Below, one piece after another: positions 1 through 25,733 of a stretch of 32,218 nucleotides of DNA. This DNA comes from Candidatus Berkelbacteria bacterium RIFCSPLOWO2_01_FULL_50_28. Lineage in GTDB: Bacteria; Patescibacteriota; UBA1384; 2-12-FULL-50-11. Where the stretch lies: NCBI GenBank assembly GCA_001774395.1, contig MEZX01000002.1, positions 29,628 through 61,845 on the forward strand, written 5' to 3'. The stretch's first letter is position 1, and each line of letters opens with the position of its first letter. Below the pieces are notes generated by a model that saw nothing but the letters and a program-made list of their open reading frames with translations, ran no database searches and was not told where the DNA came from. The position numbers and the translations under genes were made by a program.

Positions 1-681
1 TTTGGCAATATGTCGTTTCGCTACGGTGAGTACGACGAGGTTCGAGTGAACCGGAAGAAGTTTTTTGACGCGTTATCCGTTCCGGAAGAAAACGCCGTTG
101 TTGCTCAACCGGAGCACGGTAAGACAGTAGTAGACGTTACAGAGGCCGATCGAGGCATGGGAATAGCCGTACCTGAAGACTCCTTGTTGTGCGACGTTCT
201 TGTGACAGCTAAACCTGATACTTTCCTGTTCATAGTAGTGGCGGACTGTATGGCGCTTTTATTTTTCGACCCTGTACGACAGGTGTGTGCTCTGGCTCAC
301 GCCGGTTGGCGCGGAGTAGAAGCCAAAGTGCCCCAGGTTACAGTGGCACATCTTCAGGAAAAGTACGGTTGTGACCCCAGGCACATCTTTGTTGGCATTT
401 CCCCCAGCCTCAAAGCCGATTCGGCCAAGTTCAAGGAGATGGAGCAGGCCAAACTGCCGGGTTGGGAGCCGTACGTATATAAGGAAGGGGAATTCTACCA
501 CGCCGATATCAGTCGTTACGCCTACGATCAGCTTGTTTCGGCTGGAATTCCCAAGGGAAACATCGAGCAATTGGATATCGATACCCGAGTAGACAAGCGC
601 TTTTTCTCCCATCGTCGAAGTGACGAAGAGGGGTTGCCTGAAGGGCGATTTGGAGTACTTGTTGGAATCAAGAGCTTCTGA
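1..681 (+). CDS. pgeF: YfiH/PgeF family (laccase-domain) protein, 5'-truncated by the window edge
   Basis: Motifs GNMS, QxxHG, ADC, HAGWRG and FFSHR. The frame is open from base 1 (FGNMSF), so the true start is probably upstream of the window. Confidence 0.9.
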   Translation, partial: FGNMSFRYGEYDEVRVNRKKFFDALSVPEENAVVAQPEHGKTVVDVTEADRGMGIAVPEDSLLCDVLVTAKPDTFLFIVVADCMALLFFDPVRQVCALAHAGWRGVEAKVPQVTVAHLQEKYGCDPRHIFVGISPSLKADSAKFKEMEQAKLPGWEPYVYKEGEFYHADISRYAYDQLVSAGIPKGNIEQLDIDTRVDKRFFSHRRSDEEGLPEGRFGVLVGIKSF

Positions 682-747
682 TTGTCACTCCATATCGACT
701 TACTATTTACTAGCCACCCGTTATCACCGTTCCCTTCACAACCCGCC

Positions 748-776
748 TTGACACCTCTCTAACTCCCTCATATATT
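748..776 (+). promoter_or_regulatory. sigma70-type promoter for the XRE gene, probably giving a leaderless mRNA
   Basis: TTGACA (748-753), 17 nt, TATATT (771-776). ATG at 784 is 7 nt downstream, with no SD. Confidence 0.7.
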
Positions 777-783
777 ATAATAT

Positions 784-1167
784 ATGAGACGGCTAAGTCG
801 TGATTTCAACCGAGAGAAGTTTCTGAAAGATCAAGAGGAAAAACGTTATATTACTGAAACTATCGGTGGACCGAAGAAAGCCTTCAACAAACGACGGCGA
901 TTAAACCCAGGCGCCCCGAAAATTCGTATACCCGAACCTGTTCTAGAGGCGATATGGTTCAAGGAGCTCTGTGGGGTTCTGGCTCACAAACGTCGCGAAA
1001 GAGGATTGTCACAGCTTGAACTGGCAAATATCGTCAAAACAACCCAGACAGCGATCTCCAGGCTTGAATGTGCCCGAGCAAACCCCACATCTGAATTTCT
1101 TGATCGAGTATATGAGGCGCTTAAACTGAATATTTCGTTCCACATCACCGATCACGTTAGCAAGTAG
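784..1167 (+). CDS. XRE-family helix-turn-helix regulator
   Basis: C-terminal RRERGLSQLELANIVKTTQTAISRLE...NPT is a canonical HTH_3 pattern. Confidence 0.85.
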   Translation: MRRLSRDFNREKFLKDQEEKRYITETIGGPKKAFNKRRRLNPGAPKIRIPEPVLEAIWFKELCGVLAHKRRERGLSQLELANIVKTTQTAISRLECARANPTSEFLDRVYEALKLNISFHITDHVSK

Positions 1168-1419
1168 ACCGCTATTTTCGTCACCATAAGTTAGAGGCAA
1201 GTATGAAATAACAATTTCCTGTGTTTAGCTATCGTATATATTATACACGACGGGACGTAGTCCCAAGTGAACGTCGCGGTTGTCGCTTAACAGCGACTAT
1301 AATATATGACGCAGCTAGGGGAGATAAACCATTTTCCTCGTTGTTTTTGAATGCTGTTCTTGAATGGATGTTTATCGATAAAGGCTGAAGCTCGTAATGT
1401 AAAATTGCCGCGTAATGTA

Positions 1420-1448
1420 TTGACATTTTGGATGACATATGCTACAAT
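1420..1448 (+). promoter_or_regulatory. Promoter for the collagen-repeat gene
   Basis: TTGACA (1420-1425), 17 nt, TACAAT (1443-1448) with extended -10 TG. CGTAATGTA is directly repeated just upstream (1393, 1411). Confidence 0.7.
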
Positions 1449-1543
1449 CCGGTCGTTAGTGTGAAGGACCAAGAAGTTATCACGCTACGCAATCGATTTA
1501 CAACACAAAACAAAGGCCGCCGAAAGCGGCCGAGGAGGATGGA

Positions 1544-2584
1544 ATGAGAATTTCCATTTTCGCGGCCCTGGTGGCCGCATTCGTCACTCTGTCGGGTCCG
1601 GCCTTCGGGCAGGTTCCCGACAACCCCGGACAGACCCCGCCCACGCAGGGCGAGGTCATCGCGGCGCCGACGGCGCCCCTGCCCGGCACGACCGTGGAAA
1701 TCGGCGCCCCGCCCGCGCAGGGCGAGACGGTTGTAACTCCCGGCCCCCAGGGTCCGCAAGGACTCCAGGGCGAAGCTGGACCGCAAGGTCCGGCCGGACA
1801 GCCGGGACGATCCGGCCGTGGCCCCTGGGGCAACGGCCTGGATCGACGAGTCGGTGCCATTGAGGGCCGGCTCGATCAGGTCCATCTAGGTGTGAAGGAC
1901 CTGAAGAGCCGAAACGCCGTCGCCCGTGGCTATGTCATCGGGCACGACGACCGGCTGAGAAAGGATTTGACCACGTCCCCGAACGGGGGCACGACCGCCG
2001 CGCAAGCGGCAGCGTCCGAAGGGACGCAGGAGGGAGGCATGAGCGCCTGGGCCTGGATCGTTATCGTCATCGGTTTTATCGCACTCGCCCTGACCATCGG
2101 TTGGTTCTGGGGCAATCTGGTTGACAGGAGAAGCCTCCGCAATCAGAACCACACCCCTACGGGCACGCTCGACCCCCACGCCGCCGGCCACTGGGACATG
2201 ACGGAGGAGTCGACGAAGGATCGTACCTATCGTCGAGCCCGACCGGAAACGGTTGTCCTGGCCGAGATGGACGCGGCCCGTGCCGCGGCCGACGCTCGGG
2301 TGGCGGAAGCTGCCGCATCGGCAGCTGCTCGTCGCGAGCTAATTGCCACGATCAACCAGCCCGTGCTGGTTGCGGGGTACTGCGTCGGCACCGTGCCGGC
2401 CGGCACTCCCATTCCGCCAGCAGCGCCAGCCGGACCGGCAGTTGTGGTGAACAACTACAACGCCCCGGCGGCGGCCGCGGCGCAGCCGGCCCGAGCGGCT
2501 GCTCCCCAGCAACCCGCCGCCGGACAGCAGCCGGCCGCAGGGGCTGCCCCCGCAAGGGCTAGGGCGCCCAGAGCTAACCCCTAG
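1544..2584 (+). CDS. Membrane-anchored protein with signal peptide, short collagen-like Gly-X-Y run and Ala/Pro-rich tail
   Basis: SD GAGGAGG; Sec signal (AFG-Q); GPQGPQGLQGEAGPQGPAGQPGRSG; TM WAWIVIVIGFIALALTIGWFW; strong GC3 bias. Confidence 0.8.
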   Translation: MRISIFAALVAAFVTLSGPAFGQVPDNPGQTPPTQGEVIAAPTAPLPGTTVEIGAPPAQGETVVTPGPQGPQGLQGEAGPQGPAGQPGRSGRGPWGNGLDRRVGAIEGRLDQVHLGVKDLKSRNAVARGYVIGHDDRLRKDLTTSPNGGTTAAQAAASEGTQEGGMSAWAWIVIVIGFIALALTIGWFWGNLVDRRSLRNQNHTPTGTLDPHAAGHWDMTEESTKDRTYRRARPETVVLAEMDAARAAADARVAEAAASAAARRELIATINQPVLVAGYCVGTVPAGTPIPPAAPAGPAVVVNNYNAPAAAAAQPARAAAPQQPAAGQQPAAGAAPARARAPRANP

Positions 2585-2594
2585 CTCACCCAAC

Positions 2595-2647
2595 GAGCCC
2601 GTTTCCAACGCAAGCAATCGCTTGCCGAGGAGACGGGCTCTCTTTTT
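2595..2647 (+). terminator. Intrinsic terminator
   Basis: GAGCCCGTTTCC...GGAGACGGGCTC stem followed by TCTTTTT. Confidence 0.75.
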
Positions 2648-2658
2648 ATACCCAAAAG

Positions 2659-5600
2659 TTAGATTACTTCAGTAATGTGAGGCAGTAAGTTCTCTGCCTC
2701 TTCATACAAAGTCACGCCGTTAAGACGGATAGTTGCCATAGTCCCTCCAACGTCTTCAACGCTAAACTCCGTCTCTGAAGTGAAATCCTCTGGTCGATCA
2801 TTTGCACCCCATTCACCTTCGGCAGTTTCTGAAGCATTGGCGATAATTTCAAGCGGATTGTCAAACTTTATCTTCTTCCCCTTTAAGTCCTCAAATTTTA
2901 AGAGCCCTAATCGCTCCAGATCAGTTTGCGGTTCGGCTTCCGGGCGGTCTGTGGCAGGCGTCGTTTCGGCTACAGGCTGAACCGCTTCCGGCACCGATGT
3001 TACGAACTCTGGTGGAATTTCGGGTTCTGCTGTCTCGTCAGGCGCGGGTGTGTCGATTACTGGAGGCCCGGCTGATGGTGTTTCAGCTACAGGTTCCGGA
3101 GCATCGGGAAGACTATCTCGCAACGCGTTCAAGTCCACGCCGCCACGAACGCGAGCACCCAGTGTGGTATCAAAGTTACCCCCGCGAGTAACGGCCGGAA
3201 TATCGGTCGGACGCTCAACGGGCGGCTCAGCAGTTTCCCTTATCTCCGCTACCGCTTCATCAATCTCATTTCCTACACCCCTATCCTTTTCCCGTTTCAT
3301 TCCAGGAAGCGGGCGGCGTGATCCGCTCTCAGCATCGCCAGGACCACGTTGCCCACGATCTGAACGTTTCGTACCCTTAATATCTACTGGTTCTGATCCG
3401 GCTTCGGCAGACTGCTCACCACCGACGGACGGAGTAGCTTCTGTCTCCGCAAGAACATGCGGTTTCAGTTCAACCCCATCATTGCGCTGTCTGATAGCCT
3501 CGTTTATCTCCCAGAGAAAATTACGAGCAAATTCGTTGACCCTTGTCGTCGACTTCTTCTCTTCCTCAACGACCCTCTCTCTCCCGGCTTTTTTCTGCCC
3601 TTCTGTGCCGTAGGAAATCGTGAAAGATGGTTCCCCGCCGTCTTTGGCGGGTGTCTCGCGCAGAACGTGCTCGTAGCCCTCGCGATCAACGAAACGCACA
3701 AATCTTTGCTCCGTCCCATCTGGCCGCGCCTCTGACCCGACTTCTGCACCAATCGTCTCCCAAACTTGCGGGTCGACGATACTGGCCAGCCCAGATAACC
3801 GTTTAACGTACTGGCTCGAGTCCCACTCTTTGTAATCACTGGGGAAATGGAGGGTCTCCATCCGAGCACGCCTGGGTTCGCTTTTCTTGGCTTCATTATC
3901 TTGGCCCTCCGAAGGAACGGCCGTGAATGTGAGAGGCTTGCCGGCGGTGGGCTGGCTTTGGACGTTCAGGCTTCCTCGCTTGTTGCGCTTATCGAGCTCG
4001 GACTCGTCGTACGAGCGGAAGAACTTAATTCCTTCAGGTGTTCGACCGGCAAGCTGGTAGCGCGGTTGCGGACCGCTTGTGTCGATACCACTTATAACCA
4101 TGGTTCCCTCTCCTACTTTGAATTCCTCGCCGTAACCGTATTTTGCCCCCTCAACATTTTTTGACGATTCCGGTTTCGGCGGTTTTCCTTCGTTCTCGGC
4201 AGTAGAGTCGGACGGCGATCCAGCCTCCCTATTTTCAAATGATGCTGGTGTTAGCCCTCTTCGATTGGCATCTCGCAATTTTTCGATTGGTACTTTCTTT
4301 GTGTCCCCTCCTTCTGGGCTCAAACACAGTGCACCGATCTCATCACCCTCTTTAAAGAATTTGATAATTTGCCAGCCCCTTTCAACGTGTTCATCACTCC
4401 TGCGCACGAAGACCTCGTCACCGACATTAAAATCTGGTGGCTGGTCGTCCGGACCTATTGGCTGAAGTTCGGGAAACTCACTTTCGGGAGGTAAGGCCGG
4501 TAATGGCTCGACCGGTGGACGTCCGTCTGTATCTTCGGGGTCTCCGCCTTCTGATCCACCTGGCCCGCCCGGACCTGGTGCGCCAGGAGTTATCACAACC
4601 GGCTGGAGAGGAGTGCCAGGCTCCTGTCGAATAATTGGCCTATACTGGCGCATAAAGTCGTCGATTCTCATTACATGAACAGGATAAGCGGCCGCTCCAG
4701 TCGCTGGATTTTTTTCATATTTCACCACGGCGATCTTATTGTTCTTGATATCGACCGCCGCCACGCCGACTTCAACGAAGGTTCCAGATGTTTTATCAAC
4801 AACCATGCCCTCGATTCTTTGTCCGTCGACATCGGCTTCGTTCAAAACCCAAGTTGGCACCTTCTCAAAATCAAACTCGTCTTTGGGAATCGTGTGAGGT
4901 TGCGCAGCCCAGTTATATTTATACCCTTCCGGGTTCTGGGGAATGAATACGCCGTTTTCTCGCCTCTCCCACGCCACTGTTTGCAGATACTGTTCGTTGG
5001 TATCAATCTGTTCGTTGATACCGCGAAACATTGCCTGGTCTCTTTCGGATTGAGCCACACGCTGCTCGGCTTCCTTACGCTGGGACTGACGGTAGCTCCA
5101 GCCTCCCAGCAATGACGAAGCAAGCACAACCGGCAGGCCACGTTCGAGCATTGTGGCAATTACTAGGTTGCTAGTTGTATCGACTGTTCGACCCAGGAAA
5201 TGGTTAAGCGTGTGACCGCCAAAACCCATAGCTTTATCGGCGTTTGTCCACAAAAAGTTGTAGCTGTTGCCGAATTGCTCAACGCCGTGGAAAACGCTCT
5301 GTCCCTCAACCTTGCCAAAAAGGTCCAAATCAACCGGATCGAAAGAGCCGGCGAGATTTTCAATGGCCGCATAAGCACCAACGCCGGCGATCTCACCGAC
5401 GGTCTGTAGAGCCCCACGAAGTCTGGCAAGCTTGGCTTCGCGCTGCTCGAGGGATTTCTCGGCTGTGTTAATTCGTTGCACAATCGCCGCTTCACCTTGT
5501 TTATAGTAGAGGTGGGTAATTTTATCTAAAATGTCATGGGCTCTGACGGGATCCTCTGCGCATAAGTGCTGATAATCATTGGCCAACTGCTGCATCTCTA

Positions 5601-6785: not shown

Positions 6786-7907
6786 CTAATTCAAGTAGTC
6801 GCGTAGCTTCGAAGCTTCTTCGTGCTTCTTCATCTTCTGCAGGGCTTTTGCCTCAATTTGACGGATACGCTCGCGGGTAACACCGAACTCTTTGCCAACC
6901 TCTTCCAACGTGTGGGTGCGGCCGGAGGCGCCACCTTCATCTAAGCCAAAGCGCATGCGCAAAATTTTCTGTTCGCGCGGCGTCAAGATTGAAAGCGAAT
7001 CCTCAACGTGGCCCTTCATCAGCTGGTAAATGGCCTGCTCTTCCGGCGACATTGTTTGCTTGTCTTCGATGAATTCGCCAAGACTCGAATCGCCCTCTTC
7101 GCCCACCGGCGATTCAAGTGAGACGGTTTCTTGGCTAATACGCTGGATGTGTTCCAGCTTATCCATCTCGACACCAAGTTTCTTGGCCAGCTCTTCGTTC
7201 AACGGCTCACGGCCAAGCTCTTGCTGCAGCTCGCGCTGGGCGCGCATATAGCGGTTGATCGTTTCAACCATATGGACTGGGATACGGATCGTCCGGGCTT
7301 GGTCGGCAATGGCGCGGGTAATCGCCTGGCGAATCCACCAGGTAGCGTAGGTTGAAAACTTGAAGCCGCGTTTGTAGTCGAATTTCTCGACGGCACGTTG
7401 TAGCCCCAAGTTGCCCTCTTGAATTAAATCAAGCAGAGTTAGTCCGCGGCCGATGTATTTTTTGGCGATAGAAACCACTAAACGCAAGTTGGCCTCGGCC
7501 AGTTTGCGCTTGGCAGATTTGTCGCCACGCTCAATTCTTTTGGCAAGCCGCACTTCTTCTTCGCCTTTTAAGAGCGGGTACTGGCCGATCTCGCGCAGAT
7601 ACATTCGTACCGAATCTTCCGAAAGGCCAGTTAGGTCGTCGTCGCGCACGGTCTTTTTCTTGCCGTCGGGTTCCGGTGGGATTTCGAGTAGCGGCTTTGA
7701 ATCGCGGACTTCGACGCCAATTGACCCGAGGTATTTTAAGAACGAATCGATAAGCTCCAAATCGTTTTCCGGCTCGGTGTAAGTCTGCAGGATCTCTTTG
7801 TAGGTAACAAAACCATGAGTGCGGCCTTTGCGCACCAGGTGCATTAATTCCTCTGGAAAGCTTACGCCGGCGTCTTGTTTGAGTTTTTTTGGAACGGCTT
7901 TAGTCAT
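6786..7907 (-). CDS. rpoD: Primary sigma factor RpoD/SigA
   Basis: [69 protein letters not shown] 7907 is better spaced from the AGGAG SD than TTG 7913. Confidence 0.97.
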
Positions 7908-7929
7908 CGGCAAACTCCTTTGGAGTTTG

Positions 7930-8021
7930 TAATTTTCAATTTTAAATTATCAATTTTCAATAAATTTTTAATTACTAAATTTGAAATTGACTCGAAACTC
8001 GAAATTAGAAATTCAAAATTC
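7930..8021. repeat. AT-rich two-armed 7-nt-period repeat array
   Basis: taatttt caatttt aaattat caatttt caataaa ... taattac taaattt gaaattg ... gaaactc gaaatta gaaattc aaaattc. Confidence 0.8.
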
Positions 8022-22888: not shown

Positions 22889-25264
22889 CTACGCGTCGAT
22901 TACTTGCGAGAGAAGTAATTTCTTCTCTACGGACGCAATTAGTTTACGGGAGGAGACCGCCACGTCGGGGGCAACAGAGACAGAAGTTGTGCCGGCCTTG
23001 ACCATCGCTTCGGTAATCTCCGGATAAACGCTGGGTGCCTGGCCGCAGATCGAACAGGTAACGTGATGTTTGCGGCAAGTGCGCACAACGTGCAAAATTG
23101 AGTTTAAAACTGCCGGATATCTCTCGTCAAATTCGGCCGCGAGCTTGGAGGAGTCGCGATCAATACCCAGAATAAGTTGGGTTAAGTCGTTGGAGCCGAT
23201 CGATACCCCATCGATTCCTTCTTCGATATAACGCTCTAACTCCAAAACCGTGGAAGGCACTTCCACCATTATCCACAGCTTGAAATCGGCAGACTGCTTA
23301 AGATTGTTTTGGTGCATTAGGTCGCGCACTTTTACAAACTCGTCAACGGTTCGGACAAACGGAATCATTACGTGCAAGTTTTTCAGGTCCAACCCGTCGC
23401 GAATCTGTTTGATCGCTTCGATCTCCAGCGCAAACTCGTCCGGCTCGTTAACATAACGCGACGCGCCGCGGTAGCCGATCATCGGATTGTTCTCCTGCTC
23501 CTCGTACTTGTCACCGCCTTTCAGCGAGCGATACTCGTTAGTTTTGAAGTCGGTGAAGCGGTAAACCACTGGCCGAGGATTGAAAGCCTGGGCGATCGTG
23601 CTGATGCCTTGGCTTAGCTTTTGGACAAATTCTTTTTGGCGGCCCGCGGCGATCATTGCCCTAGGGTGCTCGCCAATTCCAGCGATAATGAATTCAGCAC
23701 GAAGCAACCCGACGCCGTCAACCGGCAGCTGGGCGTACTCCTCGGCTTTGTCTGGCTCGGCCAAATTCAAATAGACCTTTGTAGCGGTAACAGGAACGGT
23801 AGTCATAACACCGCTGGCTAGCAGCTGTCGGCTGTCGGCTTTCAGCTGAATGCCGCTAGCTGATTGCTGATGGCTGATCTCAACTTTGCCTTTATAGACT
23901 TTGCCGGATGCGCCATCAACTGTTACTACTTGGCCCGTTTTGAGCGAGTGGGTAGCAGTACCGGTACCGACAACACAGGGGATTCCCAGCTCGCGCGAAA
24001 CAATCGAGGCATGACTCGTCCTACCCCCTGTATCGGTAACAATGGCGCAGGCGCGCTTCATCGCCGGCACGTAATCCGGGCTCGTCATCTCGGTAACCAG
24101 CACGTCGCCTGCTAAAACTTTATCGATATCTTTGGGCGAGTGGATGATTTTAACGGGCCCCGACGCGCGTCCCACCGAAGCAGCAGCACCGCTTACCAGC
24201 ACGTCGGCTTCGCTGACTGTCGGCTCTCCGCTTGCGGCTTTCGGCTGTTCGGTCAAAGCTGATGGCTGACTGCTGATGGCTGACTGCTGATTACTTCCTT
24301 TGTTTAGGGTTGTAACCGGCCGTGATTGTACCATATAGAAACTGCCGCCCTCGAAAGCCCATTCCATATCTTGCGGCTTGCCGTAATGGGCTTCCACTTG
24401 GGCGCCGATTTGGGCAAGTTTTACGATCTGCTCGTCAGTAAGTTTCTGGCCTTCGAGTTTGTCTTTAGGGGTACTACGATGGACGTCGTTGCCGTCCGGA
24501 CCGCGCACTATCTGCCACTCCTGCTTGCTGACCTCTTTGCTCGCAATGTCCCAGGACTCTTTTTTGACAACGTAATGATCGGGCGTTACGGAGCCGGAAA
24601 CAATCGCTTCGCCCAGCCCCATGCCGGCATCGATAACGATCTTGGAAGTGTCATTTGTTACTGGGTCAACGCTAAACATGATGCCCGAAACTTCACTTTG
24701 AACCATTCTTTGCACCGGTACGGCGATGCCGACTTTCAGGTGATCAAACTTATTAACCGTTCGATAATAAATGGCTCGCGCTTCAAACAGCGACGCCCAG
24801 CATTCGCGAACGGCTTTTATCAAGGCCTTATGCCCTTCGATATTCAAAAACGTCGCCTGCTGGCCGGCAAACGAGGCGTCCGGTAGATCTTCCGCTGTCG
24901 CCGACGAGCGCACCGCCACCGGCCCCTTGCCCATCTCGTCGTAAGCTTTTTCGATCGCACTTATCAAAGCCTTTGGCAACTCCTTCTCTTTGACTGCTTT
25001 CTGCAAAACTAGGGCGATCTGATTCAACTTTTTCGAGGCCTCAGAATCGATCCCTTTCACCTCTTTGGCGATGAACTTATCGATGCGGTGATCGCGGATA
25101 AATTGGAAGTAGGCTTCGCTCGTAATGATGAACCCTTGCGGCACCGGAAGTTTGGCTCGGCTCATCTCGCCGAGATTGGCCCCTTTGCCGCCAACCAGTG
25201 GGATGTCGTCTTTACCGACCTCACTAAACCAAACCAAGGACTTTTTCTTTGCAGAACCTAGCAT
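22889..25264 (-). CDS. ppsA: Phosphoenolpyruvate synthase
   Basis: VGGKGANLGEM, AVRSSATAED..ASFAGQ, QSRPVT, GGRTSHASIVSRELG, GLLRAEF, SIGSNDLTQL, SICGQAP. Start taken at ATG 25264, just after the recX stop. Confidence 0.96.
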   Translation of the reverse strand: MLGSAKKKSLVWFSEVGKDDIPLVGGKGANLGEMSRAKLPVPQGFIITSEAYFQFIRDHRIDKFIAKEVKGIDSEASKKLNQIALVLQKAVKEKELPKALISAIEKAYDEMGKGPVAVRSSATAEDLPDASFAGQQATFLNIEGHKALIKAVRECWASLFEARAIYYRTVNKFDHLKVGIAVPVQRMVQSEVSGIMFSVDPVTNDTSKIVIDAGMGLGEAIVSGSVTPDHYVVKKESWDIASKEVSKQEWQIVRGPDGNDVHRSTPKDKLEGQKLTDEQIVKLAQIGAQVEAHYGKPQDMEWAFEGGSFYMVQSRPVTTLNKGSNQQSAISSQPSALTEQPKAASGEPTVSEADVLVSGAAASVGRASGPVKIIHSPKDIDKVLAGDVLVTEMTSPDYVPAMKRACAIVTDTGGRTSHASIVSRELGIPCVVGTGTATHSLKTGQVVTVDGASGKVYKGKVEISHQQSASGIQLKADSRQLLASGVMTTVPVTATKVYLNLAEPDKAEEYAQLPVDGVGLLRAEFIIAGIGEHPRAMIAAGRQKEFVQKLSQGISTIAQAFNPRPVVYRFTDFKTNEYRSLKGGDKYEEQENNPMIGYRGASRYVNEPDEFALEIEAIKQIRDGLDLKNLHVMIPFVRTVDEFVKVRDLMHQNNLKQSADFKLWIMVEVPSTVLELERYIEEGIDGVSIGSNDLTQLILGIDRDSSKLAAEFDERYPAVLNSILHVVRTCRKHHVTCSICGQAPSVYPEITEAMVKAGTTSVSVAPDVAVSSRKLIASVEKKLLLSQVIDA
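23817..23879. repeat. 7-nt-period array in frame within a ppsA linker
   Basis: GC(T/C) at 23817, 23824, 23831, 23838, 23845, 23852, 23859, 23866, 23873. Confidence 0.85.
24216..24292. repeat. 7-nt-period array in frame within a ppsA linker
   Basis: GCT at 24223, 24230, 24237, 24244, 24258, 24265, 24272, 24279, 24286; includes gctgatg gctgact gctgatg gctgact gctgatt. Confidence 0.85.
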
Positions 25265-25274
25265 TAATTCCAAC

Positions 25275-25733
25275 TTAACTTGTTTGAATCTCTTTGAGTA
25301 GTCGGTAGATGATATTGGGGGCAAAACCGCGACGGCCAAGCAATCCTAAGGCCCGGCGTTTGCGCGTCAGTTCGTCAAGGTTTGACCAACTTCTAATTCG
25401 ACTTTCTAGCAGCTCTCTGGCAACCTCAATTTCGTCATCAGCAGAGATTTGTGAGGTCCACTTTTCGGTCAACTCCCGGGAAAACCCTCGTCGCTTCATC
25501 TCCAAGCAGATGCGATACTTGCCCCGCCGCATTATGGAGAGTCTCGAGTGCACGAAAGATTCGGCGAATTTATCATCGTCGATTAGGCCAACCGCTGCTA
25601 GCCGCTGCAGCGCTTTCTCCACAGCTTCCGGCTCGTAACTTTTGTCTCGCAATCTCTCTCGCAACTCTTTCTCTGTCCGCGCCCGATAACCAAGGAGTTT
25701 CACTGCGTAATCGAAGGCCGACATACTTTTCAT
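25275..25733 (-). CDS. recX: Regulatory protein RecX
   Basis: A.KLL.YRARTEKEL..RL, GLIDDDKFA, G..RI..E.KRRG, L.RRGF; lies downstream of recA. Confidence 0.92.
   Translation of the reverse strand: MKSMSAFDYAVKLLGYRARTEKELRERLRDKSYEPEAVEKALQRLAAVGLIDDDKFAESFVHSRLSIMRRGKYRICLEMKRRGFSRELTEKWTSQISADDEIEVARELLESRIRSWSNLDELTRKRRALGLLGRRGFAPNIIYRLLKEIQTS

Follow-up and report, generated by a model that had tools for sequence, protein, structure and literature searches.

Cyanobacterial STRR (short tandemly repeated repetitive) sequences are a class of dispersed heptanucleotide repeats. Repeats of this kind have been catalogued in cyanobacteria, Xanthomonas and the Beggiatoaceae, and they have been left without explanation. 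In the accessible portions of the published accounts, the units are given as GGGAATC in Xanthomonas and GGGGAYT in Nostoc (PMC4692102) and as TAACTGA in the Beggiatoaceae, cyanobacteria and Bacteroidetes (PMC4679880); convergent inverted pairs are described as frequent in Xanthomonas, with 70-75 cases (PMC4692102). The present study deals with two tracts of tandem 7-nt units in the phosphoenolpyruvate (PEP) synthase gene, ppsA, of Candidatus Berkelbacteria bacterium RIFCSPLOWO2_01_FULL_50_28, an ultra-small bacterium from groundwater. The tracts lie in a 32,218-nt stretch of contig MEZX01000002.1, which is called the window in the following text and belongs to an 850-kb genome in three contigs. 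This genome is designated G000; other G numbers stand for its relatives, C numbers for contigs and L numbers for loci. We consider it probable, at roughly two chances in three, that both tracts are decayed copies, devoid of a gene, of a hairpin element with heptamer arms, which survives in coding DNA when it is tolerated and whose full form is a cassette around a gene of the Pfam family 23S_rRNA_IVP (IVP, S23p, Avd-like).

The closest described counterpart of the full form is Coxiella burnetii's intervening sequence (IVS). In the part of the report that was accessible, it carries two to three tandem heptamers, variable between strains, just upstream of the S23p open reading frame (ORF), and it has a 28-bp terminal stem (PMC4990558). 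A small four-helix-bundle gene is thus located in the loop of a terminal-inverted-repeat stem with heptamers adjoining the ORF, and the same part of the report regards the element as selfish (PMC4990558). Five IVP cassettes of G000 have this layout, with the difference that they are situated between protein genes. The PpsA tracts are further removed from the Coxiella element. They contain no ORF, are located inside an intact 816-codon protein gene and not in rRNA, and are in frame and presumably translated, whereas elements of the Coxiella type are excised by RNase III.

The closest counterpart of the coding copies is the group of Rickettsia palindromic elements (RPEs), which are about 150 bp long, encode a conserved peptide and occur in frame in many housekeeping genes, as far as the accessible section of the report describes them (PMC10969869). 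By this partial description, the RPEs resemble the elements of G000 in being dispersed palindromic repeats that stand in frame in many unrelated housekeeping genes and add a peptide at tolerated sites. They differ from the elements described here, which are about 60-90 nt long, are built of heptamers and have unit types that vary by locus and genome. A search of the published literature, supplements aside, returned no account that reports heptamer hairpins standing in frame in Patescibacteria or that links IVP with heptamers in general. The terms "heptameric repeats" and "23S rRNA intervening sequence" were found together, within the same scope, only in the Coxiella IVS paper.

The two linker tracts of PpsA

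The host gene is a PEP synthase gene. Its 816-aa ORF contains the domains PPDK_N (residues 47-353), the mobile His domain PEP-utilizers (411-479) and PEP-utilizers_C (512-805) in the expected order, and the closest solved relatives of its product are the PEP synthases 9dae, 8a8e and 2ols. Both period-7 tracts are located between these Pfam domains, on either side of the phospho-His domain. This agrees with an earlier note on this DNA, made from the sequence alone, which had assigned them to interdomain linkers. The units and peptides listed in that note match the coding (minus) strand exactly, with 11 units running from 24292 to 24216 and nine from 23879 to 23817. The features are collected in Table 1.

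Table 1. Coordinates, in the window, of the ppsA gene, its two heptamer elements and the related spacer element
Feature	Position	Strand	Evidence
PpsA gene, host of both elements	22889..25339	-	ORF, Pfam, solved relatives
Linker-1 element, arm 1: five NNTCAGC units, peptide NQQSAISSQPSA	24258..24292	-	sequence, TRF, lag-7 test
Linker-1 element: centre of 12 nt, followed by arm 2 (degenerate GCYGANN units)	24202..24257	-	sequence, TRF
Linker-2 element, arm 1: NNTCAGC-type units as far as the palindromic centre	23845..23879	-	sequence, TRF
Linker-2 element, arm 2: GCYGANN-type units, peptide KADSRQLLAS	23817..23844	-	sequence, TRF, fold
AT-rich heptamer hairpin element that fills the spacer between dnaG and rpoD; another unit type of the same class	7931..8020		TRF, sequence, flanking genes rpoD and dnaG

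Tandem Repeats Finder (TRF) reports period-7 rows at 23824-23848, 23859-23878, 24220-24252 and 24265-24290, as well as a perfect period-14 row at 24258-24291 in linker 1. At lag 7, linker 1 has an identity of 0.54 and linker 2 one of 0.63. When synonymous codons are resampled, the values are 0.31 and 0.37, respectively, and when the codon order is shuffled, they are 0.28 and 0.27. The observed values were reached by 0 of 10,000 replicates in each of the four tests (two linkers, two kinds of shuffle), and no other 49-nt window of the ppsA coding sequence attains a lag-7 identity of 0.55. The period-7 pattern in both linkers is real and far beyond chance. Since codon resampling or shuffling never matches the observed identity, the earlier claim that the pattern exists at the nucleic-acid level is supported. 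According to TRF and the lag-7 test, the 7-nt units stand in tandem in at least three copies, which is characteristic of dispersed heptanucleotide repeats.

Each tract consists of an arm 1 of the form (NNTCAGC)n and an arm 2 of the form (GCYGANN)n, which are inverted complements of each other around a short centre of 4-12 nt that contains no ORF. This complementarity, TCAGC against GCTGA or GCCGA, had been overlooked in the earlier note. Because the arms are inverted complements, each tract would represent a degenerate hairpin. The hairpin of linker 2 (23816-23875), folded as RNA, reaches -34.3 kcal/mol on the plus strand (z -3.81), and the mRNA strand of this linker has a z of -2.64. For linker 1, the plus strand, which is antisense to ppsA, folds as RNA with -36.6 kcal/mol (z -3.77), the arms pairing only through G-U. 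The asymmetry between the strands is due to the GCCGA units of arm 2, which produce A-C mismatches in the sense strand and G-U pairs in the other one.

The composition of the units also bears on the reading frame. As can be read from the sequence, a TCAGCNN or NNTCAGC unit cannot generate a stop codon in any frame, whatever the two variable bases are, and a GCTGANN unit gives an in-frame TGA in one phase. In the complementary arm, GCCGA takes the place of GCTGA wherever the latter would read as an in-frame TGA. In nine coding copies, the Y position is occupied by C six times and by T never (0) in the harmful phase, and by C 15 times and T 11 times in the two harmless phases. Stop codons are avoided in the coding copies, yet the C characterises the family as well and is more than a local repair.

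IVP cassettes and the dispersed heptamer arrays

All five 23S_rRNA_IVP genes of G000 stand in spacers that separate protein genes, and inverted heptamer arms enclose each of them. The TCAGC/GCYGA type is found in one of the five arm pairs, and it is this arm type that the PpsA tracts share. The arms of the tracts enclose no IVP ORF; the five true cassettes are found elsewhere in the genome. In the genomes of the family, the flanks of 12 of the 17 IVP loci contain a strict array, and at 15 of the 17 the flanks are inverted-complementary above all 20 shuffles in a local-alignment test. In IVP flanks, arrays reach a density of 0.79 per kb; in other loci, 213.5 kb in all, the density is 0.084 per kb. 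At the level of the phylum, IVP is present in 151 of 301 genomes, a tally that takes in one unpublished genome, G190. A heptamer array is located at most 200 nt from IVP at 22 of the 30 best phylum loci, on both sides at 12 of them; the same test returned 1, 0, 3 and 0 loci at lags 5, 6, 8 and 9. At 26 of these 30 best loci the flanks are inverted-complementary above all 10 shuffles. The co-occurrence with a four-helix-bundle or Avd-like gene that had been proposed earlier holds for 5/5 IVP genes of G000 and for the 22 phylum loci. IVP belongs to what we take to be the same Pfam family as Avd, the accessory protein of diversity-generating retroelements (DGRs); we know of no function for the IVP/S23p family.

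The correspondence of unit types is seen in three genomes. Besides the TCAGC-type cassette of G000, the IVP cassette of G018 has TCAGC-type arms, and the arm types of two IVP cassettes of G004 match the unit types of the Fpg and PpsA arrays of that same genome.

The tracts and cassettes are part of a class that is dispersed over the whole genome. A strict scan of G000 gave 53 arrays at lag 7, as compared with 16, 8, 3, 5, 1, 1, 0 and 0 arrays at lags 4, 5, 6, 8, 9, 10, 11 and 12, and TRF lists 103 rows of period 7, 52 of period 8 and 50 of period 9. With a relaxed threshold, 73 heptamer arrays were obtained, of which 26 fall within crude ORFs, 14 at gene edges and 33 between genes. Although G000 is about 90% coding, 47 of the 73 arrays are intergenic or at gene edges. 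Many of the arrays fold as long hairpins composed of 5-bp helices and 2-nt bulges. The TCAGC type is represented by about ten copies in G000, three of them in spacers. The copy in a class-I aminoacyl-tRNA synthetase (aaRS) gene is 88.9% identical to linker 1 of PpsA over 54 nt, the loop included. A run of N breaks the second TCAGC-type array of this aaRS gene (G000:C2 ~85360-85410, L124), so that this copy is only partly readable.

The G000 arrays have the features of a dispersed heptamer class: an excess of period 7 over the neighbouring periods, a mostly intergenic location and inverted pairs that fold as hairpins. With the Xanthomonas, Nostoc, TAACTGA and STRR repeats, to the extent that the partial accounts describe them, they have in common 7-nt units in about 3-8 copies, tens to hundreds of occurrences per genome, mostly intergenic, and a minority in ORFs at the ends of proteins. 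Measured against the same portions of the Xanthomonas, Nostoc and TAACTGA accounts, the G000 class differs in three respects. A third of the arrays are inside ORFs, the cores of conserved domains included; many unit types are found together in one 850-kb genome; and the arrays are tied to IVP cassettes, which the accessible text of those accounts does not mention.

The genome-wide scan of coding sequences suggested in the earlier note revealed a dispersed family that reaches many core genes, with in-frame arrays in 19 ORFs of G000. Of the 17 ORFs scanned, 16 have Pfam families. These hosts are PpsA, the class-I aaRS, TsaD, Fpg, UDG, L19, GatB, Def-Fmt, LepA, MetRS, MnmA, MurB, IF3, PrgI, a TrwB-like protein and an IVP. 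In-frame copies of the TCAGC type are present in PpsA (two), the class-I aaRS, Fpg, UDG and Def-Fmt, and other unit types in TsaD, LepA, GatB, MetRS, MnmA, MurB, IF3 and L19. As with the RPEs, the same repeat family is in frame in several unrelated housekeeping genes, and over a dozen core enzymes encoded by this minimal genome contain the same repeat class in frame. In one of the hosts, peptide deformylase and methionyl-tRNA formyltransferase are fused in a single 453-aa ORF (G000:C2:624283-625644, L133), with a TCGGC-type array near the end of the formyltransferase N-domain.

Fpg and LepA show the state of a site with and without an array. A loop of Fpg is longer by 20 aa in G000 and by 33 aa, made of another unit type, in G004; the loop is empty in 13 of 15 orthologues. 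In LepA, a loop of the GTPase domain holds four different heptamer types in four of the seven aligned orthologues (L164, L165, L181 and lepA of G000, C3:59255-61075) and none in the other three, which are from the same family. The LepA alignment omits 10 of 17 loci, at which no frame passed the ORF filter; these loci have shorter frames of 571-611 aa, and their matches start at residues 101-104, past the array site. In these alignments, the arrays in Fpg and LepA are insertions, absent from most relatives. Length differences of Patescibacteria proteins can stem from selfish repeat DNA and not from adaptive insertion.

PpsA orthologues and the origin of the tracts

The earlier note had regarded the PpsA linkers themselves as insertions. 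This was not borne out: both linkers are present in 24 of 24 aligned orthologues, and solved archaeal PEP synthases have them at similar length. Within the family, the net gain of array-bearing linkers over those of array-free relatives is about 3-7 residues. The linkers pre-exist and are occupied by the arrays. The linker-1 element can be aligned unit for unit between G000, G018 and the metagenome locus L036, the number of arm-1 units being equal in G000 and G018, and the linker-2 DNA of the G014 orthologue (L026) is nearly identical to that of G000. The PpsA copies thus have orthologues in three other genomes or contigs, across genera. The PpsA gene of G004 has, in each of its linkers, other unit types (CTAGC/GCCAG and GGAACT), and in G011 and G016, which are from the same genus, the PpsA linkers contain no arrays. 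Significant period 7 was detected for linker 1 in 8 of 27 and for linker 2 in 7 of 27 PpsA orthologues, with units that differ.

The earlier note had also expected the number of units to vary. Contigs from four non-source runs (X4-X7) contain both PpsA tracts with 0 differences and no indel, a comparison that shows the presence of the tracts only, as contigs drop rare variants; together with the equal arm-1 counts of G000 and G018, they provide no instance of such variation. A skip of 406 nt in the run contigs, with 34 other letters in its place and sides of 26 nt, was traced to another array-bearing locus and is not a deletion of the His domain. Taken together, the comparisons show the PpsA tracts to be old, stable residents at a site repeatedly occupied by heptamer arrays.

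Three further observations concern the PpsA orthologues. The G018 gene (L015, G018:C51:4242-9212, ORF 1-3474) contains an intein with a LAGLIDADG domain inside PPDK_N. In G004, G014 and G032, where the frames comprise 1211-1244 aa, the PpsA match is split at query residues ~441-446, which hints at another intein site within the phospho-histidine domain. In the ppsA gene of G007 (L014), a stretch of about 21 nt is common to both linkers and encodes the same 8-residue peptide, which suggests that these linkers have exchanged sequence within the gene.

We propose the following route for the tracts. The element consists of two inverted arms of tandem 7-nt units, each unit with about five conserved and two variable bases, and the full form would have the same kind of arms enclosing a 23S_rRNA_IVP gene. 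The class fills spacers throughout the ~850-kb Patescibacteria genome, and copies would reach coding DNA by landing there or by spreading through recombination. A copy would survive in coding DNA only if its length keeps the frame, if it has no in-frame stop codon and if the protein tolerates the added low-complexity peptide. PpsA may offer such permissive places in its two swivel linkers, in which the arrays would be translated as a Q/S/A-rich linker. We infer the derivation of the gene-less copies from IVP cassettes, the route of their copying and their translation. More tentatively, and at less than even odds, the heptamer arms may be the propagation or recognition module of the IVP cassettes. 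Gene-less copies would then be seeded from a cassette of the same genome, by IVP-dependent copying or by arm-to-arm gene conversion, and would repeatedly re-colonise the same loops and linkers, namely both PpsA linkers, one loop of LepA and one of Fpg. If this is true, the reduced proteomes of Patescibacteria have in these elements a general supply of new peptides for loops and linkers, and bacterial heptamer repeats and the IVP family have a common explanation.

Several points weigh against the main reading of the tracts. Neither a target-site duplication nor a transposase or other enzyme that could copy the elements was found. IVP is present in seven of nine family genomes with the searched heptamer patterns versus two of ten without them. 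This comparison is based on two patterns, each specific to a unit type, and it overstates the association because the genomes are related; G011 and G012 have arrays and no IVP match. An IVP ORF was sought in the dnaG-rpoD spacer, which is filled by a further heptamer element in the window, and none was found across 17 genomes. Copies resemble one another over just 17-54 nt of low-complexity repeat, a similarity that may in part be convergent. The hairpin of linker 1 is visible only via the G-U pairs of the antisense strand: the mRNA strand (z +0.80) shows no gain over shuffles, and neither strand of this linker is significant over shuffles when folded as DNA. GCCGA is common in the harmless phases too, and local avoidance of stops does not account for all of the C. 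It is solely from the intact frames that the tracts would appear to be translated. Finally, as every orthologue has the linkers, no empty PpsA site can be demonstrated, and conversion of an existing linker in situ is a serious rival at this gene.

In its general form, this rival assumes pure microsatellite dynamics at each site. A bias of replication or repair towards 7-nt slippage makes and homogenises heptamer runs in unconstrained sequence, template switching in quasi-palindromes produces the inverted arms, and nothing moves between loci. We regard it as unlikely, although it is the best of the alternatives. It is in keeping with the roughly ancestral length of the PpsA linkers, with the period-14 sub-repeats within the arms, which resemble local duplication, and with a short motif similar to the start of arm 2 that array-free relatives keep at the same place in linker 2. 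Over-represented heptamer repeats have been reported in many bacteria, and slippage is proposed for them in the accessible part of that account (PMC4692102). Slippage does not readily explain why Fpg and LepA contain complete two-arm elements with no intermediate in close relatives, why unlinked copies have the loop in common as well as the units, or why coding copies are made of the unit types that also form the IVP cassette arms of their own genome. It is also at odds with the number of units, which is equal in G000 and G018 and among the contigs of the four runs.

The persistence of orthologous copies across genera and the occupation of both linkers of one gene could instead reflect selection for a function in PpsA. 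The tracts would then provide the swivelling phospho-histidine domain with flexible, tuned linkers, or they would form RNA or DNA structures that pause translation or give rise to an antisense RNA at the domain borders. Period-7 DNA in eight of 27 linker-1 and seven of 27 linker-2 orthologues and the strong predicted RNA fold of the antisense strand are compatible with this view. We find it improbable nonetheless, given that the majority of orthologues are array-free, that the structure of the linker-1 mRNA strand is no better than that of shuffles and that the same elements fill spacers and unrelated proteins.

Mobilisation by a transposase has a candidate in the genome. G000 has one Y1_Tnp gene (C2:589185-589853), the best NCBIfam match of which is the REP-associated tyrosine transposase (RAYT), and repetitive extragenic palindromic (REP) or REPIN hairpins moved by this single RAYT-like enzyme would resemble the elements described here: short hairpin repeats across the spacers accompanied by one domesticated Y1 transposase-like gene. 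This explanation is very improbable. The NCBIfam match scores 68.7 bits and stays below the cut-off of 80. The palindrome that flanks the gene is 14 nt long, non-heptameric and unrelated to the heptamers; its three occurrences in the genome (3/3) are all at that gene. The heptamer arms vary, whereas REPs are sequence-specific. Y1_Tnp matches are present in seven of nine genomes with the searched heptamer patterns versus one of ten without, but this association is confounded by kinship, five genomes being from one genus, and G008 has 25 matches to the AT-type pattern and no Y1 match. As a separate observation, homologues of the Y1 gene (L111:1297-1968) occur in the same six family genomes as the TCAGC-type arrays.

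A repeat-writing system, as invoked in the earlier note, that would be DGR- or telomerase-like and based on a reverse transcriptase (RT) is hardly credible: the two RVT_1 genes of G000 best match retron families, below curated cut-offs, and lie far from any IVP gene, no DGR-type RT with an adjacent Avd or other IVP ORF was found in G000, RTs do not track the arrays (seven of nine genomes with the searched patterns versus five of ten without), and G014 has orthologous PpsA arrays and no RT match.

The dnaG-rpoD spacer

A relationship between the PpsA tracts and the array in the dnaG-rpoD spacer had been suggested in the earlier note, and it was upheld. The spacer array is an element of the same kind, absent in 9 of 17 relatives. 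As dnaG and rpoD abut (<=9 nt) in these nine of the 17 family genomes, the spacer element is an insertion. A search with Rfam at gathering thresholds returned one tRNA only in the window. A small hairpin that encloses the Shine-Dalgarno sequence is located between the heptamer arm and the rpoD start codon (window 7895-7935), and a module of this type precedes two further genes (G000:C2:513157-513190 and C2:542560-542595). In two relatives, arrays of the GCCAG/GCTAG type are found inside the 3' part of a dnaG-like ORF, at 880-915 of L264 (G004) and 930-965 of L266 (G014).

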